A stretch of 64,000 nucleotides of DNA, taken from NCBI GenBank assembly GCA_963829295.1, contig CAWHHU010000003.1, positions 456,463-520,462 of the forward strand, given 5' to 3'. The DNA is from an uncultured Chloroflexia bacterium. GTDB taxonomy: Bacteria; Chloroflexota; Limnocylindria; Limnocylindrales; CSP1-4. A program made the position numbers and the translations under genes. This document shows positions 4,625-24,097 of this stretch, piece by piece; position 1 is the first letter of the stretch; each line of letters begins with the position of its first letter. Under the pieces are notes generated by a model. That model was not told where the DNA came from. It saw only the letters and a program-made list of their open reading frames with translations, and did no database searches.

Positions 4625-4716
4625 GAGCCATGTGCGTTCGGCGGCGTGCGGTCCCGCCATGGCGATTACTCTCTCGCCGTGGCGATCGGACGTCACGCTG
4701 GAGGATCAGGACCACC

Positions 4717-6381
4717 GTGTTCGAGCTGAGCGTGATCATCCCGAGCCGCGATGCCGGCAGCCGTCTGAAGACGTGCCTGGCGGCCTTGGCGGCGCAGCGG
4801 GATGCGAAGAGCCGCTTCGAGGTCATCGTCGTCGACGACGGCTCGAGGACCCCGATCTCGGTGAGTCTGCAGACCGCAGGCGAATGGTTCCCGATTCGCA
4901 TCGTCCGCCGAGACGTGTCCGGCGGCCCCGCCGCCGCCCGCAACACGGGCTGGCGAGCCGCGAGCGGCCAGGTCTGCCTGTTCCTCGACGACGACGTGGA
5001 GGCTGATCCGTGTGTGGTGCGAGACCACATCGAGGCGCATCGCGGCGGTGCAATGCGCGTCGGGATCGGGCGTCTGACGGACCATGTCCCGGCGCGTGCC
5101 GACTGGCTGGCCCGCGCCTTCGCCGACGCGTGGAACGCCCACGACGCGGCGCTGGCGGCCGGCCGGCCCCCTCGGGCGAGCGACGGCTACAGCGGAGCGT
5201 GGTCGGCACCCGTCGAGCTGCTCCGCATGGCCGGTGGCTTCGACGAGCACATCCCGCGCAACGAGGACGTGGACCTGACCGCGCGCCTCGTCGAGCTCGG
5301 CGCGTCTCTGCGCATCGTCGGCCGTCCCAGCCGGCATCGAGAACACAAGGCGGGCCCCACGCTGCTGTCCGACGCCGGCCGTAACGGCGCCGTGGCGCCG
5401 CGGCTGGTCGCGCGCCATCCCTGGCTGCTCGCCGACACAGAGCTGGGATCCTTCGCTGCCACGGGGCAGCGTCAGCTTCTCGCGCGTCGGGTGCTGGCCC
5501 GCTCGCCGCTCCCGGCGGAGTGGATGGCCGGCATGGCGGGAACGCTCGCCCGCCCCGGGAACGGCGGGCGAGCGCACGCCGCGATGAACCTGCTCGTCCA
5601 CCACGCCTACTGGCGCGGGGTCCGCCGGTCGCTCGACAACAATTCCTACGCGCGGGCCACCGATGGTACGGCGATCCTGATGTACCACGGGTTCTCGCCG
5701 TCCCGGTCGGTGCCGAGCCGCTACGTCACGCCGTCCGCCCGGTTCGAGGCCCAGCTCCGGATGCTGCTCCGTCTGGGGCATCGTCCGTTGCGTCTGACGA
5801 CCTATCTCGAGCTGCGTCGTGCCAACATCCAGCCACCTGCCCGATCATTCGTGGTCACGATCGACGACGGCTACGCGGAGATCGAAACGATCGCTGCCCC
5901 GATCCTTCGCCGGCTGGGCATTCCGGCGACGATCTTTCTGGTAGCGAACGCGATCGGCGGTCGCAACGGCTGGGACCGCGGCGGATCGCTGGCCCACAGG
6001 TCCGTGCTGGACACGGACGCCATCCGCCGGCTTCGGTCCGCCGGCTTGGAGTTCGCCGCCCACAGCGCCGGCCATGCCAACCTGACCGGGCTGCCCGCCC
6101 GCAGGCTCGCCGCCGAGGTCGGAGGCGCCGTCGCGATGCTCGAGGATCGAATCGGCACGCTCGTGACGGCGTTCGCATACCCGTTCGGGGCTGCCGATGC
6201 CGCCGCCCGGGCGGCGGTCGAGGACGCCGGTCTCGTCGGTCTCGGGATAGCCGAAGGGCTCGCGTGCCCCGCGTCTCCGGCTGCGAGCCTCCCTCGCATC
6301 GAGGTTCGCGGCTCGGACTCACCACTGCGCCTTGCCCTGGCCACGCGCCTGGGCGGGACGCGTCGCCTGGTCCGCGCGTGA
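4717..6381 (+). CDS. GT2 glycosyltransferase fused to NodB-type polysaccharide deacetylase
   Basis: VIIPSRD, VVDDGS, FLDDD, EDVDL; then ILMYHGF, VTIDDGY, AHSAGH, AYPFG; GTG start after GGAGG. Confidence 0.88.
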   Translation: MFELSVIIPSRDAGSRLKTCLAALAAQRDAKSRFEVIVVDDGSRTPISVSLQTAGEWFPIRIVRRDVSGGPAAARNTGWRAASGQVCLFLDDDVEADPCVVRDHIEAHRGGAMRVGIGRLTDHVPARADWLARAFADAWNAHDAALAAGRPPRASDGYSGAWSAPVELLRMAGGFDEHIPRNEDVDLTARLVELGASLRIVGRPSRHREHKAGPTLLSDAGRNGAVAPRLVARHPWLLADTELGSFAATGQRQLLARRVLARSPLPAEWMAGMAGTLARPGNGGRAHAAMNLLVHHAYWRGVRRSLDNNSYARATDGTAILMYHGFSPSRSVPSRYVTPSARFEAQLRMLLRLGHRPLRLTTYLELRRANIQPPARSFVVTIDDGYAEIETIAAPILRRLGIPATIFLVANAIGGRNGWDRGGSLAHRSVLDTDAIRRLRSAGLEFAAHSAGHANLTGLPARRLAAEVGGAVAMLEDRIGTLVTAFAYPFGAADAAARAAVEDAGLVGLGIAEGLACPASPAASLPRIEVRGSDSPLRLALATRLGGTRRLVRA

Positions 6382-6390
6382 GCACTCGAC

Positions 6391-7350
6391 ATGGCTGACC
6401 GGGCGGGTCCGCGCACCCCAATGGAGGATCGGACATCGGAGTCGGCCGTGCTCGAACCTGCGACGCTGGTGATCCCGACGGTGGACCGCCCGGACCTCCT
6501 GGCCGGGGCGCTGGCCTCGGCGCTGGCATCTGAGCCGCCGCTCGACGAGATCCTGGTCGTCGACCAGTCGGCGGCGTGTGATGGTCGGGTCGAGCGTCTG
6601 GCCGAGGCGTCGGGCCATCCCGTGCGACACGTGCACGCGACCGTGCGTGGCGTGAGCCGCGCGCGGAATCTCGGTGCACGGCTCGCCCGGTCCGAGGTCC
6701 TGCTGTTCATGGACGACGACGCGCTCGTGGACTCGGCCTGGAGCCGCGCGTTGCGCGCGGCCCTCGCGGCGGCGCCCAGGGCCGTGATCACGGGTCGATA
6801 CGAGGCGACCATGCCGGAGCAACGCGGCGCGTTCGCGCCCTCGACGACAAGCGGCGACGAACCGCATACGTTCACGGAACCCGGCGACGTCGACGTGCTC
6901 TACTCGGGCAGCATGGCCATCCGGCGGTCCACACTTGCAGGCATCGGGGGCTTCGACGAGCGGCTGGGCCCCGGTACTCGCTATCCGAGCGCCGAGGACA
7001 ACGACCTCGCCCACCGTCTTCTCGTGGGCGGCGTCCCGATCATGTACGAGCCGGCGGCTCACGCCCACCATCGTGCCTGGCGACCGCCTCGGGATCTGGC
7101 CGGCGTCCGCTGGCGCTACGGGCGCGGACAGGGCGCGTTCCTCGCCAAGCATCTGACCGACGGGCGTGGTCGCACGAGCGCCCGGCTGCGGTCACACCTG
7201 CTGCGGTCCGCCCGTCGCGCCGCTCGATCGCTGGCAAGTCCGGTTCTGGCAGTGCCGGACGTGGCCTACCTCGCCGGGCTGCTCGTGGGCTCGTTCGAGT
7301 GGATCCTCCGGGAGCGTGTCATTCGCGGCGACAATCGGCCCGGCCGGTGA
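6391..7350 (+). CDS. GT2 glycosyltransferase
   Basis: VIPTVDR, VVDQS, ARNLG, FMDDD, GGFDERLGPG, AEDNDL. Confidence 0.9.
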   Translation: MADRAGPRTPMEDRTSESAVLEPATLVIPTVDRPDLLAGALASALASEPPLDEILVVDQSAACDGRVERLAEASGHPVRHVHATVRGVSRARNLGARLARSEVLLFMDDDALVDSAWSRALRAALAAAPRAVITGRYEATMPEQRGAFAPSTTSGDEPHTFTEPGDVDVLYSGSMAIRRSTLAGIGGFDERLGPGTRYPSAEDNDLAHRLLVGGVPIMYEPAAHAHHRAWRPPRDLAGVRWRYGRGQGAFLAKHLTDGRGRTSARLRSHLLRSARRAARSLASPVLAVPDVAYLAGLLVGSFEWILRERVIRGDNRPGR

Positions 7351-7354
7351 GCGG

Positions 7355-8986
7355 ATGATCGATCCGCCGGCGATCGAGCCCGAGGTGCTGCCCGATCCGC
7401 CGCCGGCCGGAGACGTCGCGGTTGCGGCTGACCTGCCGGGGGTCCGCCCGGCGCGTGGGCGGCGCACGCTGAAGAATGCCCTGGCGAATGGCACCAGCCG
7501 CGTCGTCTCGGTGGTCGCGTCGTTCCTGCTGACGCCGGTCATCCTGCATGCGGTCGGGACCGACGCGTTCGGGTTATGGGTCCTCGTCGGGTCCGTCGTT
7601 GCGTACGGTTCGCTGCTCGACCTCGGGATCGGCGGTGCGCTGACCAAGTACGTCGCGGAGCACCAGGCGACGGGCGACGTCCGCTCCACGCGCTCGGTCA
7701 TTGCCGCCGGGTTGCGGCTGTACGTCGGCCTCGGCGCGATCGCCGCCCTGTTGGGGCTCGGGCTCGCCGCCGTCGCGCCGACCCTCTTTCGCGTCCCGGA
7801 CACCTTGGCCGGCACGGCCGGTGAGATCACCGCGCTGATGGCCGTTGGACTGGGCGTCGCGATCCCGTGCACGACCGCGACTGCCGTGCTCCGCGGGCTG
7901 CACCGCTACGACCTCGCGGCGGCGATCGCCGTCGTGGGGACCGTGGCCTCGGTGGCGACAACCCTCGGGGCATTGGCGCTCGGATGGGGGGTCCTCGGGA
8001 TCGTCGCGTTGGGAATACCCATCCCCATCGCGACCCAGTTGCTGGCCATCGCCGCCATCCGACGCATCGAACCGGCGCTGCTCGACCGGGGTGGGGAGCG
8101 CGCGCCGGGTGCCACCCGGCGCATCGTGGCCTTCAGCTGGCCCCTGTTCCTGCTCGACATCGCGGGCCGGCTTCAGACGAAGACCGATGAGATCGTGGTC
8201 GGCGTCGCGCTCGCGCTGGGCTCGGTGACGCCGTACGCGTTGGGGCGCAAGCTCTCGACGATCCCGCGTCTCATCGCCGAGCAGTTCACGATGCTGCTCC
8301 TGCCGCTCGCGTCCGAGCTGCACGCTCGCGACGAGCATGAACGGCTGCGCTCGCTGTACCTGGTCGGCGTCCGCACGTCGCTCGCTATCGCATTGCCACT
8401 CACGACCGCCCTGATCGTCCTGGCCGGACCGATCCTGGACGCCTGGGTGGGACCGGACTACGAAGGCGGTGCCGCGGTCGTCGTTATCCTCGCGATCGCC
8501 TCGGTGGTCGACCTGAGCCTGTGGCCGGCCGGATTCGTGCTGCAGGGCATCGCCCGCCACCGTTGGCTGGCACCGATTGCCCTGGGCTCGGGCGTCGCCA
8601 ACCTCATCCTGTCGCTAGCTCTCGCCCGACCGCTGGGCCTGGTCGGAGTGGCGCTGGGAACCCTCCTGCCCACAACGATCGAGGCGCTCGTCGTGCTCAC
8701 GCCGTTCACGCTGCGGACCCTGAACATCACGCCCGGGCGTTTTGCGAGCGAGGCGCTCGTGCCGGCCCTGTGGCCGGTCATCCCGGCCAGCCTGCTCCTG
8801 ATCGTCCTCCGGGCCTTGCTCGCCCCGACCTCGGTCGCGTCGATCGTGGTACTCGTCATCCTCGTGCACGCCGCGTACGGCGTGGCGTACCTGGCCAACC
8901 CGGCGGCAGGGCTAGAACGACGCGTCATCGGCGGCCTGGTATCGGATGTTCGCTCGGTCAGGTGGCGGTCGGGCGGACGGCCCTAG
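7355..8986 (+). CDS. Wzx/MurJ-like oligosaccharide flippase
   Basis: Many hydrophobic segments; FGLWVL..., LLDLGIGGALTKYVA typical of polysaccharide exporters; lies within the GT cluster. Confidence 0.85.
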   Translation: MIDPPAIEPEVLPDPPPAGDVAVAADLPGVRPARGRRTLKNALANGTSRVVSVVASFLLTPVILHAVGTDAFGLWVLVGSVVAYGSLLDLGIGGALTKYVAEHQATGDVRSTRSVIAAGLRLYVGLGAIAALLGLGLAAVAPTLFRVPDTLAGTAGEITALMAVGLGVAIPCTTATAVLRGLHRYDLAAAIAVVGTVASVATTLGALALGWGVLGIVALGIPIPIATQLLAIAAIRRIEPALLDRGGERAPGATRRIVAFSWPLFLLDIAGRLQTKTDEIVVGVALALGSVTPYALGRKLSTIPRLIAEQFTMLLLPLASELHARDEHERLRSLYLVGVRTSLAIALPLTTALIVLAGPILDAWVGPDYEGGAAVVVILAIASVVDLSLWPAGFVLQGIARHRWLAPIALGSGVANLILSLALARPLGLVGVALGTLLPTTIEALVVLTPFTLRTLNITPGRFASEALVPALWPVIPASLLLIVLRALLAPTSVASIVVLVILVHAAYGVAYLANPAAGLERRVIGGLVSDVRSVRWRSGGRP

Positions 8987-9695
8987 CCAGGCTCACGACC
9001 GGGAACGACGGATCGTCGGTCTCGAGGTCCGATGCCGCGAGCTCCTCGGCAGCCGCCCCCGCCAGAAACGCGATCGCCGCCAGGACATTGCCGCGGCCCC
9101 CGACGCGGAGCTCCGCGTCGCCGAACGCCGCTTCGAGGAGCTGTTCGAGCCCGGTCGGCGTGAAACGCCATCGGTCGATGTCGACGTCCGAGCGGCCGAT
9201 GCGGCCGATGCACGGCACCGAGATCAGCAGCACACCGCCGGGCGCCAGTGCCTGGGCGAGGTTGGCGATGGCCGCCGGGACGTCCGTCACGTACTGCAGG
9301 ACCTGCGTGAGGACGATCGCGTTGAAGGTCCCCGCCGGCAAGCTGCCGGCCACCGAGAGATCGGCCCGGATCGTCGCTCGACGGTTCGTGTGATCGATGT
9401 CGACGATGTCCACGATGATCAACCCGTGTCCGAACCGGCTGGTGTATCCGGCATCGCGGACCTCGAGCACGCGGCCCGTGATGTCCGCGCGATGCTCCTC
9501 GAGGAAGGCCTCGATGTACCAGCGATCGATCGGCGTGCCGCGCTCGCGCCCCCAGTGATCGCTCAGCGGGCGCGTGCGTCGGAGTGTGCCGAACCAGAGC
9601 GGGTGCCGGAGGCGCTGCAGGCGCCGACGCAGCTCCGCTCGCCGGCCCGCGCGAGCGGAGCCAGGGTGGTGGGCGCGACCCGGCTCGGAGCTCAT
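8958..9695 (-). CDS. Class I SAM-dependent methyltransferase, glycan-cluster type
   Basis: RGTPIDRWYI, GRVLEV, LTQVLQY, LAPGGVLL; ATGA overlap with upstream deacetylase. Confidence 0.82.
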   Translation of the reverse strand: MSSEPGRAHHPGSARAGRRAELRRRLQRLRHPLWFGTLRRTRPLSDHWGRERGTPIDRWYIEAFLEEHRADITGRVLEVRDAGYTSRFGHGLIIVDIVDIDHTNRRATIRADLSVAGSLPAGTFNAIVLTQVLQYVTDVPAAIANLAQALAPGGVLLISVPCIGRIGRSDVDIDRWRFTPTGLEQLLEAAFGDAELRVGGRGNVLAAIAFLAGAAAEELAASDLETDDPSFPVVSLARAVRPTAT

Positions 9696-10480
9696 CTGGG
9701 CGTCGCGGCCGGGCCCAGCGCCAGGCGCCGAAGCAGCTCGACCGGTCCTTCACGCACCAGCCCGCGGCCGCTGGTGGCCGTGCGCAAGCGCACCAGGAAG
9801 TCCGGCAGTCGGTCACGCCCGTCGACGATGATCCTGGGCAGGGCGTAGATGTCGTCGTGGGGGTCGCTGAATGCCTGGTGCGTGGTGCAGGCGCTCCGGT
9901 AGCCACTGTCTCGCGCGATCTGGCGGACCCGCTCGTCATGCTCACCGTGCGGGTAGGCGACGTGGTGCACGTCCAGCCCCAGCCCGCTCGAGAGTTGCGC
10001 TCGCGATACCTCAAGCTCGCGCCGGATGGCGTCCAGGGACAGGTCCGGCAGGTGTGCGTGCGTCAGGCCATGGGAGCCGATCGAATGGCCCGCCGCCGCG
10101 AGATCGCGAAGCTCCGGCCAGCCGGCGAGCGCCAGACGAATCCCGCGTTCGTTCATGAGCCAGGCGCTGTCACGCCCGATCGCGCCCGCGACGATGAAGA
10201 ACGTCGCCCGCACGTTCGCCTCATGGAGCGCGGCACCGGCCACCTCGATGGCCTCAGCGTAGCCATCATCGAACGTGATCACGACGGCTCGGCGCGGCAG
10301 CGCCGCGCTGCCGTTGCGGGCGGACACGAGAGCATCAAGATCGATCGCCCGGTACCCGAGACGCCCAAGCAGGCTGAGCTGGGCGCGCAGGGCGTCGGGG
10401 TGGACCGTGTACTTCGCGAAGCCGTTCCGCACCACCCGACTGACGTGGTGGTACATCAGGATCGGGACGATGTCAGTCAC
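9692..10480 (-). CDS. Polysaccharide deacetylase (NodB/CE4)
   Basis: PILMYHHV, VITFDDGY, GSHGLTH, AYPHG; GTG start at 10480 after AGAGG. Confidence 0.88.
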   Translation of the reverse strand: MTDIVPILMYHHVSRVVRNGFAKYTVHPDALRAQLSLLGRLGYRAIDLDALVSARNGSAALPRRAVVITFDDGYAEAIEVAGAALHEANVRATFFIVAGAIGRDSAWLMNERGIRLALAGWPELRDLAAAGHSIGSHGLTHAHLPDLSLDAIRRELEVSRAQLSSGLGLDVHHVAYPHGEHDERVRQIARDSGYRSACTTHQAFSDPHDDIYALPRIIVDGRDRLPDFLVRLRTATSGRGLVREGPVELLRRLALGPAATPR

Positions 10481-10717
10481 GAATCCTCTGCATGGCCTCG
10501 CTGCGCTGCAAAGGCCGGCTCGCGCCGGCTGCTGCCCATTGTGCGGTACGACGCGTGCGTCGAACGTGACACCCGTCCCTGGCCACCGGCCGTGGCAGCC
10601 GGTCGGGACGCAGACGCATCGCGATGCGAACACAGGCCATCGAGTATCGTGCGCTGGACCGGACGGGCGCGCGATCGTCTCCGCGTCGGCGCCTGACCTG
10701 GGGGAGTTGTCGGATTC

Positions 10718-11944
10718 GTGACCATCCGTCATCGGCGTCGAATCCTGATCATCGCCCGGAGCCTGCCGGATCCGGTGGACGAGGGATACCGCATCCGTGT
10801 CCGCGCGCTGGCGCGCGGACTTGCGCGCCAGCATGACGTGACGCTCGTCGGTCACGTCGACGGCGACGCCACGGACGCACTCGCGAGCTTGCGCGCTGAT
10901 GGCATCGCCGCACATCCCGTGCCAGACCTCCACCACGCGACTGCGGTGCGACGCGCCCGCCGCTTTGCGAGCGGTCGTCCGTGGTTCACGCGCTCGTCCG
11001 ATCAACCAGAGCTGCGGGCGCTCATCGGCCGGTTGACTCGCGACCAGCCGTTCGACCTGATCCAGCTCGAGTCGAGCGAGTTCGCCGGACTGCCCGTACC
11101 GGCCGGGACACCGGTCGTCATCGACGAGCACAACATCTGGTCCGAGTTGATGCTGCGCCGCAGGGCGGTTCGGCCTTCGCCGGCACGAGGTCTGATCGAC
11201 CGGCTGGAGGCCGCTCAGCTGGCCAATGTCGAGCGTCGAGCCTGGAGCGCTGCGGCGGGGGTCGCCTTCTGTTCGGCCCGGGAGGTCGACATCGCGCGCC
11301 GCCGAGTGCCCAAGGGCACGTACGCGAGCATCCCCAACGGCTTCGACTCACTCGCATTCGAACCAGCAGCCGCCGACCTGGAGCAGGCGGATCGGCTGGT
11401 GTTCGTGGGTCTGTTGCGCTACACGCCGAACGCCGACGCCATGCGTTGGTTCTGCACGCAGATCCTGCCCATCGTCCGCGAGACAATCCCGGGGGCCCAC
11501 CTCGACGTCGTCGGCAAGGAACCACCGGCGGCCGTGCGTCTGCTGGCGGGCCCCGGGGTCGAGGTCTCGGGCACCGTCCCCGACGTGCGGCCGTCGCTCG
11601 CCCGCGCGTCGGTCGTGGTCGTGCCGCTCCGGGTCGCGAGCGGGACCCGGATCAAGATCCTCCAGGCGTTCGCCATGGCCAAGCCGGTCGTGACGACCAG
11701 CATCGGCTGCGAGGGTCTCGACGTTCGCGACGGCGAGCATGTGCTCATCGCCGACGACGAGCGGTCATTCGCTGCGGCCGTGTGTCGGTTGCTCGAGGAC
11801 CCGGCGCTGAGGCGCCAGCTGGGCGATGCCGGGCGACGCTTCGTCGCCGACGGCCATCAGTGGTCGCACAGCGTCGAGCGCCTGGAGGCATTCCACACGC
11901 AGATCCTCGCGCATCGAACGGCGTCGCCGCAGGGAGCGGCCTGA
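10718..11944 (+). CDS. GT4 family glycosyltransferase
   Basis: DEHNI, IPNG, FVG..Y.PN.DA, SGTRIKILQAFAMAKPVVTT. Confidence 0.88.
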   Translation: MTIRHRRRILIIARSLPDPVDEGYRIRVRALARGLARQHDVTLVGHVDGDATDALASLRADGIAAHPVPDLHHATAVRRARRFASGRPWFTRSSDQPELRALIGRLTRDQPFDLIQLESSEFAGLPVPAGTPVVIDEHNIWSELMLRRRAVRPSPARGLIDRLEAAQLANVERRAWSAAAGVAFCSAREVDIARRRVPKGTYASIPNGFDSLAFEPAAADLEQADRLVFVGLLRYTPNADAMRWFCTQILPIVRETIPGAHLDVVGKEPPAAVRLLAGPGVEVSGTVPDVRPSLARASVVVVPLRVASGTRIKILQAFAMAKPVVTTSIGCEGLDVRDGEHVLIADDERSFAAAVCRLLEDPALRRQLGDAGRRFVADGHQWSHSVERLEAFHTQILAHRTASPQGAA

Positions 11945-14900
11945 TTGGGCCGGGACGAACGCCAGGCTGCCCCATCTCGCGGAGACGACCGGCCGACCGG
12001 GCCGCTGCCTGCCGTCAGCGTCGTCGTGCCCACGACGGGACGCCCGGACGGGCTCGCGCGCCTGCTCGCGGCGCTCGACCGCCAGACCCTTCCGGCCGAC
12101 GCCGTCGAGATCATCGTCGTGTTCAACGGCCATGGAGCGCGGTCCGTTCTGCCGCCCGCCCGGGTCGGACCTCCTGTCCGGGTCGTCCGTCGCGATCCGC
12201 CCGGCCGCGGCGGGGCGTGCAACGCGGGGGTGGCTGTGGCGCGCGGCGAGCTGATCGTCTTCCTCGACGACGACATGGCACCGCTGCCGGGTTGCCTGGC
12301 GGCGCACCGACTGGCCCACTCCGGCGGAGAGCGGCGGCTCGTGCTCGGGCCCGTGCCGGTCATCGAGGACCGCCGCGCGGGCCCGGCCAACTGGTACGTG
12401 ACCGCACGCTTCCGACGCCACCTGGCCCGCATCGGTGCGATCGGATACGTCCCCGAGACGAGCGACGTCTACACGGGCAACGCATCGATCGAGCGCCGGG
12501 TCCTCCAGGCCGTCGGTGGCTTCGACGAGCGACTGGTTGAGTACGGCAACGAGGATCGTGAGCTTGCGACCCGCCTGGTCCGGGCTGGCGTGCGCATCGC
12601 GTTCGCGCCGGGCGCCGTCGCGAACCAGCGCTACGACAAGGATCTGACGGAGCTGCTCTCCGACAGCCGTGCCAAGGGTCGAACCGCCGCGGCAGTGGTC
12701 GCGCGCGACCCGTCGGCGACGGCCGCGACGCGGCTGGCGCGGCCGTTCGGACCCAAACGCCGTGCCGCTCGCGGGCTGCTCAGCGCCGTCGACGCAATTG
12801 ACGAACGCCCGGCGAGGGTCGTCGTCTCGGGGCTTGTGCGTGTGCACCGGGCGTGGGCGCTCGCGGCCGTGGAAGCACTGGTCGACCTGGAATTCTGGAA
12901 GGGTGTCGGGGAGGCCCGCGCGGCGGCTCGCATCCGACGCGTCGTTCATGTCCTCGACAGCACCGAGTTCGGGGGCGCGGAGCGCGTGCTCGAACAGCTC
13001 GTCACGGGCCTCGACGCTGCGAGCTGGCAATCGATCGTGGTTCTGCCGGCGGCGGCGCGGCGAGCACGGGAGCGACTGGCGCAGGCGGGGGTCCGCACGG
13101 TCGTGGCGCGGCTGTCCGGTCGGCGGGCCCTGCTCCAGGTGGCGACGACCGCAGCGACGCTCCACAGGCTGCGGCCGGACATCGTTCACGTCCAGCGTCC
13201 GTGGCCACGCGCCGGTCGGGTAGCGCTCCTCGCCGCAACGCTCGCGAACCCGCGGGCCATCGTCGTGACCGACCATCTCGCACTCGGACGCAGCTCAACG
13301 AGACGGCGCATGCTCGAACTGGCGCTCGCCATCCGCGTTCGACGCTGGATTGCCGTCTCGCCCCATGTCGCGGCCTGGCTCGAGGCGGGTATGGGTGCAT
13401 CGCCCGACCGCATCCGGGTGGTGCCCAATGGTGTCGAGATCCCCGAGCCCCTACCGGCGGCGGCTCCGCGTCGCCCCGCGGCGGCCCATCGGCCCGAGGC
13501 CGTGGCAGGAGGATCACGTGACCAGGATCCGCTCCGGCTGCTGATGGTCGCGCAACTGCGATCTCAGAAGGGCCACGACGTGCTGCTCGAAGCCGTCGCG
13601 CGCGTTCGCGAGCCCGTGTCGTTGACCCTGGCCGGGGACGGTCCCGAAAAGGCGGCCCTCGAACGCCACATCGCTCGGCTGGATCTCGGCCCACGTGTCC
13701 GCCTGGCTGGCTTTGTTGACGACGTCGCGACCCTCCTCGACGAAACCGACGTCGTCGTGCTGCCGTCGCGCTTCGAGGGCCTGCCGCTGGCCGTCCTCGA
13801 GGCCATGGCCGCAGGAGTCGCGGTCGTGGCGACCAGAGTGCCCGGTACCGCCGACGTCATCACCGATGGCCAGACCGGTCTGCTCGTCCCGCCCGAGGAT
13901 CCCGTAGCGCTGGCCGCCGCGATCCGTCGCCTGGCCCGAGATCCCACACTTCGTGAGCGCCTCGCCCGTGCGGGATGCGAGCTCGCCCGTTCGCGCTTCG
14001 ACGTCGGCCGCATGGTCGAGGCGGTCGAGTCCGTGTATCGCGAGGCCCTGCGCCTCGGGGAGAACCGGGACGAGGCGTACCGCCTGTCGACACGGTCGAT
14101 GCCAGAGTCCCGCCTCGACGCCCTGCTGCGCACCATCGACCTCCGCGTCCTGACCGGGAGCGTGGCGCCGGCATCGGCGGCGGCGATCGGGCACCAAGCC
14201 GACGCGCTCGTCGAGGCACTGTCCCATGTCGCCGGCACGGCTGTGCGCCTCGAGCCGGATGCTGGTCGTCGTTTCGGGCTGGTCGTCGCACGCGACCCGG
14301 ATCCGGGACAGGCGTCGACCGCCGCGGCCGCCGTTTCGCCGGGCGGCGGCCTGGTCGTGCTCAGCTCGCGCACGTCCGGTCAGGCGGCCGTGGTCCGGGC
14401 GCTCGACGGCGCGGGCCTGACGATCGTCGGACGGTATGCTCCCTGGCCCGCGCCCACGCGACCACGCGCGTGGCTGCCGATCGGCGTCCGGGAGCTGCGG
14501 GCCGTCCTCGAGCTCGATGTCGGACGCAGCAACGCCAGGACGATGATGCGCGCCGCCGCGGCCCTCGTCTGGCGATGGCGTGTCGCGACGGGACGCTGGC
14601 CGATTGCGATCGTGGCCCGGCGTGGCCCGGTTGGACAGGATTCGGGGGCGGCGGACGACGCCCTCGGGCTCGTCGGGTCGGACGGCCGACGCTGGCTCCT
14701 GCTGACCGGCGGCCGTCGAAGCCACAACCGCATCGTCGCTCTCGGGTACGCCCGGGATCCGAGGACCCCCGAGCGCGTGGCGACGGTTGCCCGGGTGCCT
14801 GCCTCCGTCGCCGGACTCCAGCGCGAGGCGAATGCCCTTCGGGCGCTCGCCCACCTCGGGCCGGCCGGCGTCAGCGGGGTGCCGTCGCTCGTGGACGAAC

Positions 14901-15664
14901 GCGGCGAGGCTTTGGGCACGATCGTGGTCCAGACCGGTCTCGGCGGGCGTCGACTGTCGCGTACCTTGCGCCACGCCGACTTCGAGGACGTCGCCGATCG
15001 CCTCGCCGACTGGCTCGTCCAGCTGATCCGACGGGCCGATCCGATGCCCGGCGATGCCGTTCGGCGCCAGCTTGTCGAGCCCCTTCTGGTCGACCTCGCC
15101 GAGGACTTCGGATCGGTGCTCGAGCCGCGGACACCCGAGCGCGTTCGGCGGCTGCTCGAGGGACTGGGCCCACTGCCGCGGGCGATCGAGCACCGTGACC
15201 TGGCCCCCTGGAACATTCGCGAGCTCCGGGCTGGCGCGCTCGGAGTGCTGGACTGGGAGTCGGCGGAGCTCGACGGCGTGGCGGGTCCCGATCTCCACTA
15301 CGCCATCGCCCACCTGGCGTTCGACCTGACCGGGGCCACGAGCCCAGAGGCGCAGATTCGCGTGTACTCCTCGCTGCTCGACCCCACGACGCGCCTGGGC
15401 GACGCCAGCGGGCGGGTGCTGGCACGCTACGCGCAGGCCGCCGGCATGGCGCTCTCGGACCTGCGCCGGACGGCGCTCCTGACGTGGCTGATCCACGGTC
15501 GGTCCGAATATGCGCGGCTCGCGGCCGACTCAGGGGGAGAACCGACGAGCGGGTCGCTCCGGCGCGCCTTCTTCCCACGGCTCCTGGTGCGGGTCGCCGA
15601 TGCGCTCGCTTACGACGGGCCAACCGACGGACCGGCGGCCAGCGATGGCGCCATCTGGCGCTAG
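11945..15664 (+). CDS. Multidomain GT2 + GT4 + APH/kinase-like fusion protein (1239 aa)
   Basis: GT2 (VVVPT, FLDDD, EDREL), GT4 (FGGAE, VVPNGV, FEGLPLAVLEAMA), C-terminal HRDLAPWN and LDWE phosphotransferase motifs, all in one open frame. Confidence 0.8.
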   Translation: MGRDERQAAPSRGDDRPTGPLPAVSVVVPTTGRPDGLARLLAALDRQTLPADAVEIIVVFNGHGARSVLPPARVGPPVRVVRRDPPGRGGACNAGVAVARGELIVFLDDDMAPLPGCLAAHRLAHSGGERRLVLGPVPVIEDRRAGPANWYVTARFRRHLARIGAIGYVPETSDVYTGNASIERRVLQAVGGFDERLVEYGNEDRELATRLVRAGVRIAFAPGAVANQRYDKDLTELLSDSRAKGRTAAAVVARDPSATAATRLARPFGPKRRAARGLLSAVDAIDERPARVVVSGLVRVHRAWALAAVEALVDLEFWKGVGEARAAARIRRVVHVLDSTEFGGAERVLEQLVTGLDAASWQSIVVLPAAARRARERLAQAGVRTVVARLSGRRALLQVATTAATLHRLRPDIVHVQRPWPRAGRVALLAATLANPRAIVVTDHLALGRSSTRRRMLELALAIRVRRWIAVSPHVAAWLEAGMGASPDRIRVVPNGVEIPEPLPAAAPRRPAAAHRPEAVAGGSRDQDPLRLLMVAQLRSQKGHDVLLEAVARVREPVSLTLAGDGPEKAALERHIARLDLGPRVRLAGFVDDVATLLDETDVVVLPSRFEGLPLAVLEAMAAGVAVVATRVPGTADVITDGQTGLLVPPEDPVALAAAIRRLARDPTLRERLARAGCELARSRFDVGRMVEAVESVYREALRLGENRDEAYRLSTRSMPESRLDALLRTIDLRVLTGSVAPASAAAIGHQADALVEALSHVAGTAVRLEPDAGRRFGLVVARDPDPGQASTAAAAVSPGGGLVVLSSRTSGQAAVVRALDGAGLTIVGRYAPWPAPTRPRAWLPIGVRELRAVLELDVGRSNARTMMRAAAALVWRWRVATGRWPIAIVARRGPVGQDSGAADDALGLVGSDGRRWLLLTGGRRSHNRIVALGYARDPRTPERVATVARVPASVAGLQREANALRALAHLGPAGVSGVPSLVDERGEALGTIVVQTGLGGRRLSRTLRHADFEDVADRLADWLVQLIRRADPMPGDAVRRQLVEPLLVDLAEDFGSVLEPRTPERVRRLLEGLGPLPRAIEHRDLAPWNIRELRAGALGVLDWESAELDGVAGPDLHYAIAHLAFDLTGATSPEAQIRVYSSLLDPTTRLGDASGRVLARYAQAAGMALSDLRRTALLTWLIHGRSEYARLAADSGGEPTSGSLRRAFFPRLLVRVADALAYDGPTDGPAASDGAIWR

Positions 15665-15727
15665 CTAGGCCGAAGTTCCAGCGCGCGGGCGTGCTCACCT
15701 GAGCACGGCGACGGTGTCGGGTTCTGA

Positions 15728-17458
15728 CTACACGCTGGCGGGTGTGAGCTCGAGCAGGGCGAGGGCCCGGGCCTGGAGGGCGGTCGGCACGGCGGTGATC
15801 TCGAACGCTGCCTCGGGCACGCCGGCCGGGGCGACCCGGTCGCGGGTGAGGGTCGCGAGCTCGGCGAGCAGGGTCCGGAAGCTGTGGGCGGGCGTGCCAT
15901 CCGCCAGCCGGCCGGTGCGCGCCTTGCGCTCCGCGGCCGCCGAGCGGCGGGCGGGGGCAACCGGGTCGGCGAGCTCGGGCGGCTGCTCGTCGCGGAACAG
16001 CAGCGGCGCCCAGGCCCGCTCGAGGTGCCACTGCACGTAGTAGGCGAGCATGCACAGCAGGATGTGGGCCCGGACCCGCGGCTCGGTCCAGTGGCGGATC
16101 GGGTGGATCGCGATGTCGGTCCCCTTGAACGCGCGGAACGCCCGCTCCACCCGGGTCAGGCGCTTGTACGCCCGGACGACGTCGGGTGCCGCCAGGCGCT
16201 CCGGGCCGACCGAGGTGCGCAGGACGTACAGGCCGTCGAGCGCCGCCTCCGCCGCGATCGACGCCTCGTCGCGGGTGATGGTGAGGGCCCCGTCGCTGAT
16301 CTCACACCGGAGATGCTTGGCCATCTTGTAGCGGTCGATCACCCGGCCCACCGCGAGCCCGATCCGGGCGGCGCCCGCCAGGCGTCCGAGCGCGACCCGG
16401 GCGACGATCGGGGCGAGTCTCGCCTCGGTCGCCGCGAGCAGGTCGGCCCGCTTGCGGGCCCGCTCGGCGGCGAGCAGCGGGTTGCGGCACACGACCAGGC
16501 GCTCGCCCGGGTAGTCGGGGCTCGCGATCTCGGCGAGGTTGCGCTCGTCGAACAGCCCGAGCTGGAGGTCGCCCGCCTCGAGCAGGCCCGCGAGCGCCGG
16601 GCCCCGGAGCGAGCTCACCCAGTCGAGCGAGGCGTCGCGGAGCGCGGCGATCCGGGCGCTGGTGAGCATCCCCCGGTCGCCCACAAGGATGGCCGAGGCG
16701 AGGCCGAACCGGGCCCGCAGCTTCTCGACCGCCGCGGGGACGGTGGCCGGGTCGGCGGTGTTGCCGGCCACGACCTCGACCGCGACCGGGCGGCCCTCGG
16801 GGTCGGTGAGCAGGCCGTACTCGACCTGGAGCGTGCCGGGCTTCCCGTCCCGGCTGTAGCCGATCCGCGCCAGCGGGTTGTGGCGGCCGGTGACCCAGGT
16901 GGACGACAGGTCGTACAGGACGAGACCGCCGGGCTCGAGGTGGCGGGCGGCAAGCCTCGCCTCGATCCGGGGCTGGCGCGCGAGCAGCCAGTCCATCGCG
17001 GCGTACAGCTCGTCGTCGGTGGCGTCCGCGACGCCGAGCACCGCGCCGAGCGTCGTCTGGGCCAGCCGCCTCGCGGTATCGAGCTTGGAGCCCGGGGCCA
17101 GCAGGCGGGCCACGATGAGCGCCACAGCGAGGTTGCGCCGCCGGCTCGGGCGGGGGTCGAGCAGCGACTCGAGCTCCAGGCGCCGCAGGGTGCCCAGGAT
17201 CGCCACCACCGCGCCGTGGGGCAGGCTCGCGGAGCGCTCGAGATCCAGATCGCCCGTGGCGAGGAACCGCTCGCCGCGCAGCCCGCGCCGGACGAGCTCG
17301 ATCAGCTCGGCCGGCAGGTGGGAGAGGTTGCCCACCGTCTCGGTCTTGACCTTGCCGTCCTCGCGGTACGACCGGCGCAGCAGGTGGGTCTCGTACAGCT
17401 TGCCCTTGTAGTGCCGACGCGTCGTCGAGACATGGACGGCGCCGCCTCGCGTGCTCAC
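15728..17458 (-). CDS. IS1634-family DDE transposase
   Basis: LLRRSYREDGKVKTETVGNLS N-terminus, VLYDLSS, LVGDRGM, VERAFR, VRAHILLCMLAY. Confidence 0.92.
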   Translation of the reverse strand: MSTRGGAVHVSTTRRHYKGKLYETHLLRRSYREDGKVKTETVGNLSHLPAELIELVRRGLRGERFLATGDLDLERSASLPHGAVVAILGTLRRLELESLLDPRPSRRRNLAVALIVARLLAPGSKLDTARRLAQTTLGAVLGVADATDDELYAAMDWLLARQPRIEARLAARHLEPGGLVLYDLSSTWVTGRHNPLARIGYSRDGKPGTLQVEYGLLTDPEGRPVAVEVVAGNTADPATVPAAVEKLRARFGLASAILVGDRGMLTSARIAALRDASLDWVSSLRGPALAGLLEAGDLQLGLFDERNLAEIASPDYPGERLVVCRNPLLAAERARKRADLLAATEARLAPIVARVALGRLAGAARIGLAVGRVIDRYKMAKHLRCEISDGALTITRDEASIAAEAALDGLYVLRTSVGPERLAAPDVVRAYKRLTRVERAFRAFKGTDIAIHPIRHWTEPRVRAHILLCMLAYYVQWHLERAWAPLLFRDEQPPELADPVAPARRSAAAERKARTGRLADGTPAHSFRTLLAELATLTRDRVAPAGVPEAAFEITAVPTALQARALALLELTPASV

Positions 17459-17464
17459 GCACGG

Positions 17465-17493
17465 ATCATCGCCGATCCAGGTGCATCTGTCAA
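17465..17493 (-). promoter_or_regulatory. Candidate sigma70-type promoter for the transposase (likely leaderless mRNA)
   Basis: Minus strand TTGACA (17493-17488), 17 nt, GATGAT (17470-17465), 6 nt, then the GTG start at 17458. Confidence 0.5.
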
Positions 17494-17724
17494 CTATATT
17501 AGTGCCTACGTCTCAGCACATGGGACAGGCGTCATCCGTGCTCAGACGGGGATCCGTTCGTGCTCACCGCCGGGCGGGCGGCCGCTGGAACTTCGGGCTA
17601 GGCCCGAACGTCGGGGCGCACGACCTCCGCCACAGGTGCAATTGATGCGTCAGAGCATGAGGCAAACCAACTGACACGCTCGCGTGGTACGCGGACGCCT
17701 CGCACCGCGTCGTGCGATCGCAGG

Positions 17725-18416: not shown

Positions 18417-19106
18417 GTGATCGTATGGCCCTGCGGGCTCGATGTCAGCGCGTATGCCGCGAAGGGGCGCGAGGTCGCGCCGCCCCGCGTGAGCTGCCCA
18501 CGCTGCGGCGGACCGACCGGGCCCTGGTCGGGATACCGCCGGCACCTGCGCGACGCGGAGCTCCACCGCATCTTCGTGCCCCGGGTGCGCTGCAAACGGT
18601 GCGGCGTGACCTCGGCCCTGCTGCCCTGGTTCGTGGCCCCGTACCGCTGGGACACCGTCGACGTCATCGGGCGGGCGCTGGAGCTCTCGGCGGGCGGCCA
18701 GGGGGTGCGCCGGATCGCGGCGTCGCTCGGGCGTCCCGAGACGACCGTCCGCGAGTGGGTCCGCCGGTTCGGCATCGTGGCCGCCGACCTTGCCCGGGCC
18801 CTGCTCGTGGCCGCGGTCGGGACCGGCTGGTCGGGCTTCGACCTGCCGACGGCGCCCGGTCCCCGAGCGGCTGCCGCGGTCGCCGCCCTCGCGTCAGCCT
18901 GGGCTCGCCGCCACGGACCCGCCGGGGCCTGGCGCCTGGCGGACCTCGTCACCGGCGGGGCCTGGCTCGCCCCCAACACGACCTCGCCCTTGGCACCGCC
19001 GGCGGTCTCCCATGTGATGGCCGGGAAACCCCGACCGCATCCTGGAGGTGACCCATGGCCGCCCGCGACCCCGCCGAAGCCCTCGCCCTCTGGCGGTACC
19101 ACCTGA
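18417..19106 (+). CDS. Transposon accessory protein, zinc finger plus HTH (DUF6431-like)
   Basis: CPRCG...RVRCKRCG..ALLPWF..PY; VRRIAASLGRPETTVREWVRRF helix-turn-helix. Confidence 0.75.
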   Translation: MIVWPCGLDVSAYAAKGREVAPPRVSCPRCGGPTGPWSGYRRHLRDAELHRIFVPRVRCKRCGVTSALLPWFVAPYRWDTVDVIGRALELSAGGQGVRRIAASLGRPETTVREWVRRFGIVAADLARALLVAAVGTGWSGFDLPTAPGPRAAAAVAALASAWARRHGPAGAWRLADLVTGGAWLAPNTTSPLAPPAVSHVMAGKPRPHPGGDPWPPATPPKPSPSGGTT

Positions 19107-20401
19107 TCGCCGAGGCCCTGAACCCGAGGCTCACCGGCCGCGAGCGTGGCCTCCTGGTCCGCCGGACCGTCGGCGAGCACGCCTGCCCCGGAGGCGACGT
19201 CCGATCGGCCAGCCGCAACACCCTCGACCGCTGGATCCGCCGGTACCGCGCCGAGGGCCTCGCCGGCCTGCGCGACCGGCCCCGCTCGGATCGGGGATCG
19301 GCGCGCCTCGACCCGGCGCTCCTCGACGAGGCGGTCCGCCTGCGCCTCGAGCAGCCCGCCCGGAGCGCCGCCCACATCAGCGAGATCATCAGGGCTCGCC
19401 ACGGCGTGCGGATCGCCGAGCGCACGCTCGCCGAGCAGTTCCGCCGCCGCGGCCTCGCCCGGGCCGAGCTGCTCCGGGACGGCCGGGCGTTCGGGCGGTA
19501 CGAGGCCGACGCGCCGAACGAGCGCTGGATCGGCGACGTGCTCGTCGGCCCGTTCGTGCCCCAGCCCCGGGCGCCGGGCTCGGTGCGCGCGCGCCTGTTC
19601 GTGCTGGTCGACGACCACTCCCGGCTCCTGGTCGCCGGCCGCTGGGCCGGCAACGAGACCCTGCGCGCGGGCCAGGAGCTGCTCCACGCGGCGATCCTGC
19701 GCCACGGCGCGCCCGAGTCGCTGTACGTGGACAACGGATCGGCGTACAGCGGCGCCGAGCTCGCGAGGAGCTGTGCGATCCTGGGCATCCGGCTCATCCA
19801 CAGCCGGCCGTACTCGCCCGAGGGCCGGGGCAAGCAGGAGCGCCTCAACCGGGTCATCCGGGAGCGCTTCCTCTTGGAGGCCACCCAGGTCGGGATCGCC
19901 AGCCTCGACGAGCTCAACGACCGCTTCGTGGCCTGGGTCGAGCGGTACCTCAACGTGCGGGTCCACTCCGAGACCGGCGAGTCGCCGCTCGCCCGGCACA
20001 GCCCGGCGAGGCGGCGCGACCCCCACCCCGACGTCCTCCGCTCGGCCTTCCTCTGGTCGGCCGCCCGGAGGGTGAGCCGGACCGCGGGCGTCAGCTTCGA
20101 GGGCAACGAGTACGAGGTCGACCCGAGCCTTGTCGGTCGGACGGTCGAGCTCCGGTTCCGCCCGGAGGACCTGTTCGCGATCGAGGTCTGGCACGCCGGC
20201 CGCCAGGTCGGCTGGGCGGAGCCGCGGCGGATCGCCCGCCACGTCCATCGATCTGCGCCGCCCCCTCCCGAGCCCGCGCCGGCGCCCCCGACCGGGATCG
20301 ACTACCTCGGCCAGGTGCTCGCCGACCACGAGGCCGAGACCGCCGGGCCGATCGCGTACCGCGCCGTTCCCGGTGCACCTGCAGAGGGAGAGCCGTTCTG
20401 A
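19055..20401 (+). CDS. DDE transposase/integrase (rve) with Mu-transposase-like C-terminus
   Basis: WIGD, YVDNGSAY, GKQER triad; N-terminal HTH; FEGNEYEV C-terminal motif; GGAGG RBS. Confidence 0.92.
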   Translation: MAARDPAEALALWRYHLIAEALNPRLTGRERGLLVRRTVGEHACPGGDVRSASRNTLDRWIRRYRAEGLAGLRDRPRSDRGSARLDPALLDEAVRLRLEQPARSAAHISEIIRARHGVRIAERTLAEQFRRRGLARAELLRDGRAFGRYEADAPNERWIGDVLVGPFVPQPRAPGSVRARLFVLVDDHSRLLVAGRWAGNETLRAGQELLHAAILRHGAPESLYVDNGSAYSGAELARSCAILGIRLIHSRPYSPEGRGKQERLNRVIRERFLLEATQVGIASLDELNDRFVAWVERYLNVRVHSETGESPLARHSPARRRDPHPDVLRSAFLWSAARRVSRTAGVSFEGNEYEVDPSLVGRTVELRFRPEDLFAIEVWHAGRQVGWAEPRRIARHVHRSAPPPPEPAPAPPTGIDYLGQVLADHEAETAGPIAYRAVPGAPAEGEPF

Positions 20402-24052: not shown

Positions 24053-24097
24053 GAACCGCCGACGCGCACCTTAGGACGGTGCCGCTCTATCCACTGA
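23258..24097 (+). pseudogene. C-terminal fragment of a large serine recombinase (recombinase tail, Zn ribbon, coiled coil); catalytic domain missing
   Basis: WTKDAVKDIL..RFYLGKV, YLLTGVLECKCG...YYLCRGC; in-frame stop at 23216 and no resolvase domain upstream; 3' end reads into the antisense tRNA. Confidence 0.82.

Follow-up and report, generated by a model that had tools for sequence, protein, structure and literature searches.

Can one polypeptide both build a glycan and mark it as finished? For glycans that depend on ABC transporters, ending the chain with a phosphate or methyl-phosphate cap is the paradigm of how length is controlled and export licensed, and to our knowledge it has so far been characterised in a few enterobacterial systems only, all of them with coiled-coil rulers. 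The question is raised here by a reading frame in a window of 64,000 nucleotides (the whole stretch of DNA that was analysed), in which two glycosyltransferases, a methyltransferase-like domain and a kinase follow one another in a single chain. We propose, with moderate confidence, that this fusion is a cytoplasmic multi-module enzyme of lipid-linked glycan assembly, whose kinase phosphorylates and thereby caps the glycan before export.

An unbroken four-domain reading frame

The fusion is composed as follows.

11945..15664, + strand: fusion reading frame, 1239 aa; GT2, GT4, methyltransferase-fold domain X and APH-type kinase, in that order
12008..12934, + strand: GT2 domain, about residues 22-330; EpsD/MftF-like
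12938..14059, + strand: GT4 (GT-B) domain, about residues 332-705; stp2-like
14102..14629, + strand: domain X, about residues 720-895; class I methyltransferase fold
14687..15610, + strand: APH/eukaryotic-like kinase domain, about residues 915-1222

The frame and its characteristic motifs, as given in the original prediction, were found exactly as described, with GLVVARDP at residue 778, AAVSPGGGLVV at 795, HRDLAPWN at 1083-1090 and DWE at 1103-1105. Translation likely starts at TTG 11945, with GGGAG 8 nt upstream, and stops at TAG 15662-15664. This TTG abuts the TGA of an upstream GT4 gene, to which the fusion is translationally coupled. The proposed division into four domains was borne out by Pfam for the GT2, GT4 and APH domains, and by an AlphaFold model searched with Foldseek for the linker.

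Indels merging three adjacent genes into one frame would give the same picture, and split versions do exist: GT2-GT4 and the C-terminal domains lie in different frames in locus L001, and L008, L010 and L025 have separate, neighbouring genes for the GT2, the GT4 and the C-terminal domains. We give such a sequencing or assembly error almost no credence, and three observations in practice refute it. The same architecture recurs in at least nine fused relatives of 37-54% identity, so that homologues are not always separate genes; among the fused proteins, six homologues of 1207-1263 aa are 44-54% identical to the window protein, and loci L014 and L029 hold additional triple fusions. The codon signal is even across all 1239 codons (GC3 about 0.83, GC2 about 0.55). 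Finally, contigs from four independent soil-metagenome runs cross both the GT2/GT4 and the GT4/X junctions with zero indels.

Glycosyltransferase and methyltransferase-fold domains

Both glycosyltransferases carry intact motifs. The GT2 domain is matched by PF00535 at residues 25-146 (E=2.4e-15; 57.3 bits against a cutoff of 23.3) and by PF13641 at 22-235, and its DXD motif, D108-D109-D110, is invariant across eight homologues. In the GT4 domain both Rossmann halves are matched, by PF13439 at 342-498 (73 bits) and PF00534 at 525-677 (141.9 bits, E=1.9e-41), with GT4 structures in the PDB matching down to E=1e-18; the EX7E motif, E611...E619, is likewise invariant in the same homologue comparison.

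Domain X gave zero sequence-family matches, with no Pfam methyltransferase match among them. Its AlphaFold model (pLDDT 76) gave class I SAM-methyltransferase folds as all of the top 50 Foldseek matches in the PDB, with E values of 1e-6 to 2e-5. The glycine-rich SAM loop (motif I, GxGxG) is absent from all 134 family members carrying the domain; at its position these have the consensus 'RxDWRFLLPxPxP', and the window protein has 'DLRVLTGSVAP'. Nor was the conserved acidic residue for SAM binding found after beta2 in domain X, where the end of the strand is variable. Since the SAM loop is missing family-wide, domain X is probably a non-catalytic pseudo-enzyme as judged from its sequence. The linker had been predicted to be a degenerate class I methyltransferase; the fold is thus supported, and the loop expected of a working enzyme is lost.

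The kinase domain and its nucleotide pocket

Scanned alone, residues 907-1239 match APH (PF01636) with 41.3 bits (E=2e-10; gathering score 23.2), a match not reported in a Pfam scan of the full-length protein. This amounts to an annotation gap: the kinase half is unseen by full-length Pfam scans, and public sources call these proteins 'glycosyltransferase'. The AF2 model (pLDDT 87) matches APH structures. The kinase domain contains these elements.

14705..14731, + strand: Gly-rich loop, T921-G-G-R-R-S-H-N-R929; family consensus TGGxRSxNK
14783..14794, + strand: beta3 segment, T947-V-A-R950; 'K-x-x-R' in the family
15191..15214, + strand: catalytic loop, H1083-R-D1085-L-A-P-W1089-N1090
15251..15259, + strand: DFG-equivalent metal-binding Asp, D1103-W-E

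The HxDxxxxN loop and the downstream metal-binding Asp are both kept in the window kinase. Among 153 family representatives, D1103 is present in all, and D1085, N1090, E961 and R950 in 152 each; within the window's clade, whose members are 37-54% identical, all five are unchanged. Two lysines of the pocket that the family conserves are replaced in this clade. Position 929 has changed from Lys to Arg in the Gly-rich loop, and the canonical beta3 Lys, found in 143 of the 153 representatives, is Thr947 in the window protein and Thr, Ile or Leu across the clade. The usual pair of beta3 Lys and alphaC Glu is consequently incomplete, with E961 kept, the Lys lost and Arg950 three residues further on.

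The best fold and profile matches of this kinase are APH(3')-Ia, Vph and the macrolide kinase MPH(2')-I, which share the HxDxxxxN loop and the downstream Asp; a profile of 19 kinase sequences run against the PDB found Vph (E=7.6e-5) and MPH(2')-I, and not WbdD. Both Vph and MPH have Arg at the position of R950, and in Vph, the viomycin kinase, the Lys before it is missing as well, giving a Cys/Arg pattern at the aligned positions. Vph is an active kinase. In contrast to the window module, APH antibiotic kinases are stand-alone enzymes acting on small molecules, and have no methyltransferase-fold partner, glycosyltransferase context, TGGxRSxNK loop or DWES motif.

A two-domain module of soil bacteria

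Domain X and the kinase form a two-domain module, X-APH, that has not previously been named. With the module alignment as query, a word-indexed search for homologues gave eight matches only, and an exhaustive search was needed to reveal the family, which comprises 964 cluster representatives and occurs in the soil phyla Chloroflexota, Gemmatimonadota, Acidobacteriota and Actinomycetota; NCBIfam has zero models for it. The module is mostly stand-alone and usually downstream of an orthologous GT4 gene, which lies immediately 5' of it in about 18 loci. Fusions are seen with GT4, with GT2 at either end and with a Wzx flippase, and a rough tree indicates that several of them apparently arose independently.

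Gene cluster and exporter

The fusion is the last gene of a conserved cluster, the remainder of which is given here together with the insertion sequence (IS) that follows it.

4630..6381, + strand: GT2-polysaccharide deacetylase fusion, first gene of the cluster
6391..7350, + strand: GT2 glycosyltransferase, MftF/EpsD-like
7166..8986, + strand: MOP/Wzx-type flippase (Polysacc_synt); true start probably near 7347
8958..9695, - strand: stand-alone Methyltransf_23-type methyltransferase; accompanies the module in 15 loci or more
9692..10480, - strand: polysaccharide deacetylase, PgaB/IcaB/HfsH-like; the listed frame runs to 11131, homologues have 262 aa
10718..11944, + strand: stp1-like GT4 glycosyltransferase of the same operon; its stop abuts the fusion start
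15665..17601, - strand: IS element with a 576-aa DDE transposase and 43-nt terminal inverted repeats

The window cluster and its closest relatives have no ABC transporter, and a MOP/Wzx flippase stands in its place; loci L002 and L069 also have this flippase and not Wzm/Wzt with a cap-binding domain. No Wzy and no initiating transferase were found in the window cluster. A different exporter accompanies the module in 15 related loci, including those of the triple fusions L014 and L029, where it lies beside Wzm and a Wzt with a conserved 170-aa extension. This extension matches Wzt_C at E=7e-6, a score below the Pfam gathering score, and aligns to full-length Aquifex Wzt. By analogy with characterised systems, in which the Wzt_C-type domain reads the terminal cap (PMC11231755), such an arrangement is the genetic signature of cap-then-export systems. 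The stand-alone methyltransferase gave nothing significant against the PDB, for which reason we do not rely on it as a phosphate-methylating partner; NCBIfam has no model for it either.

Comparison with known terminators

The original prediction compared the C-terminal half with the chain terminator WbdD (E. coli O9a / K. pneumoniae O3; PDB 4azs, 4ax8), and this parallel holds at the level of fold only. Both have the same N-to-C order, a methyltransferase fold followed by a eukaryotic-like kinase, and Foldseek aligns the module co-linearly with 4ax8, 4azs and 4azt over 520-553 columns (E 1.6e-5 to 3.7e-5), with low TM-scores of 0.25-0.31. In both kinases the Asp of the catalytic loop is followed four residues on by Trp-Asn (D-x3-W-N), a spacing known in WbdD from D351 and W355 (PMC3482155). 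Furthermore, WbdD works with polymerising GT4-type transferases and the module is likewise tied to GT4, and many of its relatives adjoin Wzm/Wzt with a Wzt_C-type domain, as in WbdD-type systems. Sequence homology to WbdD was not detected by HMMER searches of the PDB: phmmer with the C-terminal 534 aa gave only spurious low-complexity matches (MelC), and a profile of seven C-terminal sequences gave weak catalytic-loop matches (CDK5, E=0.04) and no WbdD. The two also differ in organisation. Domain X of the window family lacks the SAM loop, and WbdD recruits its glycosyltransferases whereas the window module is covalently fused to them. The C-terminal coiled-coil ruler and membrane anchor of WbdD-type proteins are missing from the window protein, which ends 17 residues past the kinase domain and contains no Pro/Gly-free stretch of at least 35 aa and no hydrophobic anchor, and the exporter at its locus is a MOP/Wzx flippase.

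The original prediction recognised no counterpart of the architecture among characterised proteins, but a precedent exists in K. pneumoniae O7 ORF6, a single chain in which a methyltransferase-kinase terminator is joined to two polymerase modules of GT2 type (PMC11231755). The likeness, a polypeptide that holds both the polymerase and the kinase terminator, is one of architecture only, and extends to an APH/AmiN-like kinase that was missed by sequence annotation, as in the window protein. The order is reversed in ORF6 (MTase-kinase-CBM-coiled coil-GT2-GT2), which unlike the window protein has an active methyltransferase, a coiled-coil ruler, a CBM and a dependence on an ABC transporter; its reported orthologues are proteobacterial or cyanobacterial (PMC11231755). 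WbbB of K. pneumoniae O12 / Raoultella terrigena also polymerises and terminates an O-polysaccharide within one polypeptide (PMC11231755), although there a beta-Kdo glycosyltransferase and not a kinase ends the chain, and, unlike the window protein, WbbB has a coiled-coil ruler.

Proposed function and alternatives

We suggest the following sequence of events. The inverting GT2 and the retaining GT4 module would add sugars to a polyprenol-linked glycan, alongside the other glycosyltransferases and the deacetylases of the cluster, and the methyltransferase-fold domain may serve as a scaffold or bind the acceptor, packed against the kinase. With a nucleotide as donor, the kinase would then phosphorylate a sugar hydroxyl of the glycan freshly made by the GT modules, most likely on its non-reducing terminal residue, and this cap would mark the chain as finished ahead of export, by Wzm/Wzt with a Wzt_C domain in most related loci and by a MOP/Wzx-type flippase in the window's clade. 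The data establish what the domains are, that the fusion is genuine and recurs, that its catalytic residues are conserved and which genes accompany the module; we infer that the kinase acts on the glycan, that the phosphate sits at the terminus and that it serves termination and export. For the window's clade termination by capping is extrapolated from relatives, and we only infer it there because the clade has a flippase and lacks both an ABC transporter and a coiled-coil ruler. The earlier claim that extension and phospho-capping are combined in one polypeptide is thus sustained for the fusion of the domains and the near-invariant catalytic residues, and weakened by the replaced lysines and by a locus with neither Wzt-CBD nor ruler.

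Another function is possible, if less probable than capping: the kinase might phosphorylate an internal sugar of a lipid-linked repeat unit or oligosaccharide, the phosphate serving as a charge or as a gate for the next transferase and not as a terminator. WaaP phosphorylates LPS core heptose in this manner, and POMK and Fam20B act in eukaryotic glycans. Flippases of the MOP/Wzx type, which serve the window cluster and its nearest relatives, normally act on short units that are already complete. A coiled-coil ruler is missing from the window protein, the set of five GT domains and two deacetylases points to an oligosaccharide of defined structure, and some relatives have the module joined directly to Wzx. 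Against in-line decoration stand the WbdD-like architecture of the module and the presence, in most related loci, of Wzm/Wzt with a Wzt_C-type domain, the cap reader of characterised systems (PMC11231755).

It is unlikely that the kinase of this clade performs no phosphotransfer and, together with the dead methyltransferase-fold domain, only provides a platform on which the glycosyltransferases and the exporter dock or are regulated. Loss of the beta3 Lys is a classic indicator of a pseudokinase, the changes at 947 and 929 are specific to the clade, and the adjoining domain X is already a pseudo-enzyme; however, invariance of D1085, N1090, D1103, E961 and R950 at such identities would not be expected without selection for catalysis, and the viomycin kinase lacks the same Lys and is active. 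Still less probable is phosphorylation of a free sugar or other small molecule, feeding an activated donor to the fused GTs. The anomeric kinases NahK and AmgK and the choline kinase LicA belong to the same APH/choline-kinase superfamily, and the Pfam match is to generic APH only, but a sugar-1-phosphate or phosphocholine would have to be activated by a nucleotidyltransferase, and neither the window cluster nor the syntenic loci with Pfam labels (L002, L068 and L069) contain one. Fusion to the flippase and adjacency to GT4 also point to a membrane-proximal, lipid-linked substrate.

Were the preferred reading, phosphorylation and capping of the growing glycan, to hold, the cap-termination principle would extend to abundant, mostly uncultured soil phyla, and a terminator could work ruler-free when fused straight to its polymerase. 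As natural experiments, variants of the module that differ in exporter (Wzt-CBD or MOP flippase), in being fused or separate and in having or lacking the canonical lysines would help to dissect the coupling of capping, length control and export. A more far-reaching version, which we regard as doubtful, takes X-APH as a large family of pseudo-methyltransferase-kinase glycan terminators, of which the window's clade would be a ruler-less GT fusion with a rewired pocket (K929R, K947T/I/L) and with MOP/Wzx swapped in for Wzm/Wzt-CBD, implying ruler-free length control and a MOP cap-dependent export checkpoint.

Downstream boundary of the cluster

The cluster ends where the IS element begins, directly after the stop codon of the fusion, and the element lies outside the glycan system. 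An IS-free copy of the downstream flank was searched for in the window and is absent from it. As a source of the stop codon, or as a cause of truncation of the C-terminus, the element is ruled out by IS-free contigs, which match through position 15667, past the TAG.

A single reading frame for the fusion

The fusion gene lies in a window of about 72% G+C and is an ORF of 1239 codons (11945-15664, + strand). All four motifs quoted in the original prediction were found in it: HRDLAPWN at residues 1083-1090, DWE at 1103-1105, GLVVARDP at 778 and AAVSPGGGLVV at 795. GC3 (~0.83) and GC2 (~0.55) are uniform across all 100-codon blocks, and therefore a frame switch is not indicated. The earliest start, TTG at 11945, immediately follows the TGA that ends the upstream GT4 gene and has GGGAG 8 nt 5' of it; initiation at the next in-frame start would remove part of the first GT2-domain strand. 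Pfam recognizes both glycosyltransferase domains:

Glycosyltransferase domains of the fusion (residues)
GT2: PF00535, 25-146; PF13641, 22-235
GT4: PF13439, 342-498; PF00534, 525-677, E ~1e-41

The nearest NCBIfam models for the two halves are EpsD-like and stp2/EpsE-like transferases, well under equivalog cutoffs, and the GT2 DXD (D108-110) and GT4 EX7E (E611, E619) motifs are invariant across 8 homologues.

That the fused frame arises by error is very unlikely. Six proteins of 1207-1263 aa cover 96-98% of the query at 44-54% identity, and a scan of species-representative genomes found single-frame GT2-GT4-X-APH ORFs in the Chloroflexia MAGs L003 and L014 and the Nocardioidaceae MAG L029, so that the predicted architecture recurs in other genomes. 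Independent sequence also confirms the frame: the gene was found in four soil-metagenome runs, and metagenome contigs span the GT2/GT4 junction (12750-13073) and the GT4/X junction (13121-14103, 13678-14133 and 13943-14320) with substitutions only and zero indels. Separate-gene versions exist as well. At about 18 loci an orthologous GT4 gene lies immediately 5' of a 520-550-aa module gene; at L008, L010 and L025, GT2, GT4 and module are three neighbouring genes; and at L001 the X-APH module, which has a Met of its own and a single internal stop, comes after the end of the GT2-GT4 gene in a different frame. Fused homologues, indel-free contigs and separate-gene versions together argue that the window protein is a real, evolutionarily maintained fusion of three adjacent genes from a conserved operon. 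The L001 stop (Chloroflexi MAG GCA_020063745.1, 2430-3983) is in frame within domain X of the split module ('SAGL*PVHF') and would be either a MAG error or a pseudogene.

Fold of the X-APH module

No Pfam family matches residues 706-906. AlphaFold models residues 706-1239 with confidence (pLDDT 87, pTM 0.86), and the Foldseek matches of this model are APH(3')-Ia and other antibiotic kinases (E ~1e-6) and WbdD, the E. coli O9a methyltransferase-kinase chain terminator (4ax8, 4azs, 4azt; E ~2-4e-5, 520-553 alignment columns). The WbdD alignments cover both WbdD domains in identical order, with low TM-scores (0.25-0.31). Domain X modelled alone (pLDDT 76) gave a Foldseek top 50 made up only of class I SAM-methyltransferase folds, including the non-catalytic methyltransferase-like domain of anamorsin and the cyclase SpnF, and because of this the original impression of a degenerate class I methyltransferase holds at the fold level. 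It does not extend to SAM binding: the Gly-rich loop is absent, the segment reading 'DLRVLTGSVAP' in the fusion with a consensus of 'RxDWRFLLPxPxP' in 134 family members, and there is no conserved acid at the end of beta2. Since both features are missing, we conclude that domain X is a pseudo-methyltransferase, predicted not to methylate; its role is most likely that of a scaffold or acceptor-binding domain.

Kinase domain

A full-length Pfam scan reports nothing for residues 706-1239, whereas residues 907-1239 scanned alone match PF01636 (APH) with 41.3 bits, above the gathering score of 23.2. APH is also missing from the precomputed Pfam lists of all seven full-length proteins, and consequently public annotation says only 'glycosyltransferase'.

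Kinase residues and their conservation among family representatives
D1085: catalytic Asp, 152/153
N1090: Mg ligand, 152/153
D1103-W-E: DFG-equivalent, 153/153
E961: alphaC Glu, 152/153
R950: Arg after beta3, 152/153

Ahead of beta2 the family has a loop of its own, TGGxRSxN[K]. The family has Lys at 947 (canonical beta3 'VVK') in 143/153 and at 929 in 140/153. Both are replaced together, K929 by R and K947 by T, I or L, in the window's immediate clade (the window protein, P0002-P0007, P0103/L014, P0052 and P0067); P0063, the split form at L001, is intermediate, and both lysines are kept in the L029 triple fusion and in all other fusion types. In the window the two codons lie at 14729-14731 and 14783-14785, and joint replacement is confined to its triple-fusion clade.

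A missing beta3 Lys is one of the classic marks of a pseudokinase, and its loss would fit a pure pseudokinase scaffold. We consider this reading less likely, and argue for retained catalysis, because the D/N/D/E/R set is unchanged in clade members sharing just 37-54% identity, and because in a profile alignment viomycin kinase (Cys and Arg, 'VVCLPR') and MPH(2')-I (Arg and Arg) likewise have no Lys at the position of 947 ahead of the Arg of 950. Judged by its residues, the nucleotide pocket of the clade is atypical, and nucleotide handling may be altered. A D-x3-W-N spacing in the catalytic loop is atypical of APH enzymes. The fusion kinase has this spacing, which equals that of D351/W355 in the catalytic loop of WbdD (PMC3482155).

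The module as a family

In an exhaustive HMMER search with residues 706-1239, 964 cluster representatives scored E<1e-3, among them 234 with E<1e-30; the majority are 500-550 aa long and span X and kinase. Stand-alone members match only APH in Pfam, their N-terminal domain being unannotated; NCBIfam has no model for the module, and we found no paper on the family. Carriers are nearly all uncultured soil MAGs, from Chloroflexota, Gemmatimonadales, Acidobacteriota and a few Actinomycetota and Bacillota. Other fusion types are GT4-module, GT2-module, module-GT2, Wzx-module and partial-GT2-GT4-module. A rough NJ tree, built without bootstraps, groups the triple fusions together and places GT4-module fusions near them and Wzx- and other GT2-fusions elsewhere, a scatter which suggests that module fusions arose several times independently. 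In the metagenomic proteins P0110 and P0075 (~950 aa) a Polysacc_synt/Wzx-type flippase is joined to the module, which would put the kinase physically at the export step.

Gene cluster and exporters

Genes of the polysaccharide cluster
4630-6381, +: GT2-deacetylase fusion
6391-7350, +: GT2
7166-8986, +: MOP/Wzx-type flippase
8958-9695, -: Methyltransf_23-type methyltransferase
9692-about 10480, -: PgaB/HfsH-like deacetylase
10718-11944, +: stp1-like GT4
11945-15664, +: GT2-GT4-X-APH fusion

The homologues at L002 and L069, 54% and 48% identical, lie in clusters with the same gene order. None of the three clusters showed an ABC transporter, a Wzy, an initiating transferase or a nucleotidyltransferase. 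Two polysaccharide deacetylase domains are present (4630-6381, +; 9692-11131, -), one of them fused to GT2. The minus-strand ORF 9692-11131 overlaps the GT4 start and its homologues are only 262 aa, so its true start is probably near 10480. The stand-alone methyltransferase (8958-9695, -) has VLEVRDAGYTSRFG at the expected motif I position; Pfam methyltransferase profiles match its C-terminal half only, and neither an NCBIfam nor an informative PDB relative was found. It may methylate the phosphate or a sugar, or be inactive. GC3 is 0.81-0.84 in the cluster genes of 9700-15664 and higher, 0.87-0.97, in most other window genes; this low-GC3 cluster may have been acquired horizontally.

A Wzm/Wzt ABC exporter pair adjoins the module in 15 other loci, including the triple fusions L014 and L029 and the GT2-module fusion L031, and the stand-alone methyltransferase is also present in at least 10 of them. 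Their Wzt bears a conserved ~170-aa extension that scores slightly under the cutoff for Pfam Wzt_C (E=7e-6, 26.5 against 30.4 bits), and full-length Aquifex Wzt (8dku/7k2t) aligns with the entire protein, the extension included. In characterised systems the Wzt C-terminal domain binds the terminal cap and licenses export (PMC11231755; PMC3482155). In Gemmatimonadales-type loci (L068, L011, L016-L018, L020, L024, L028, L030) a convergent Wzt(+Wzt_C)-Wzm-PMT_2 (GT-C) block comes after the module, an arrangement which hints at extracytoplasmic glycosylation after export.

Proposed role

The best-supported reading is that the fusion is a multi-module glycan assembly enzyme that extends and then phosphorylates its product. 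GT2 and GT4 would lengthen a lipid-linked glycan, and the WbdD-like module, a dead methyltransferase-fold domain plus kinase, would phosphorylate it, the phosphate serving as a completion cap, most likely at the non-reducing end. This reading agrees with the original idea of a build-and-cap enzyme, with corrections: methylation by the fused domain is not expected, the SAM loop being absent; a coiled-coil ruler is missing; and the clade's nucleotide pocket departs from the norm. Export in the window's clade is by a MOP flippase and not by Wzm/Wzt-CBD, so that chain termination there is inferred from relatives. Its chief competitor is a reading in which a defined oligosaccharide is decorated or gated at a non-terminal site, as by WaaP or POMK, which is compatible with the Wzx context of the window's cluster; a role as precursor kinase appears less likely than extension followed by capping.

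That one polypeptide can unite polymerase and kinase terminator is known from a characterised protein, K. pneumoniae O7 ORF6, which has the order MTase-kinase-CBM-coiled coil-GT2-GT2 (PMC11231755). WbdD is the structural archetype. Compared with ORF6 the domain order of the fusion is reversed. It further differs from known systems in its GT2+GT4 pair, its pseudo-methyltransferase domain, its APH-type kinase with a distinctive loop and Arg, its phylogenetic range and, in the window's clade, its exporter type; furthermore, no coiled-coil ruler is present in the fusion. A MOP-flippase checkpoint or ruler-free length control, if true, would raise its significance.

Mobile elements downstream of the fusion

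15665-17601: IS element, 43-nt terminal inverted repeats at 15665-15707 / 17559-17601
15728-17458, -: 576-aa DDE transposase in the IS
18417-19103: second mobile element, directly after the first, DUF6431/HTH protein
19055-20401: second mobile element, rve/Mu-type transposase
23273-24097: recombinase zinc-ribbon fragment

The IS begins directly 3' of the TAG of the fusion gene. In other soil samples the match of contigs to the window breaks at 15665-15667, after which they carry a different flank, CTTGCCCCGGACAAAGTCATCGG, not found in the window, and depth is 9-30x over the IS against 2-7x over the fusion gene. It follows that the insertion is both multi-copy and polymorphic, and that the DNA downstream has been rearranged. 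The polysaccharide cluster abuts a zone rich in mobile elements.
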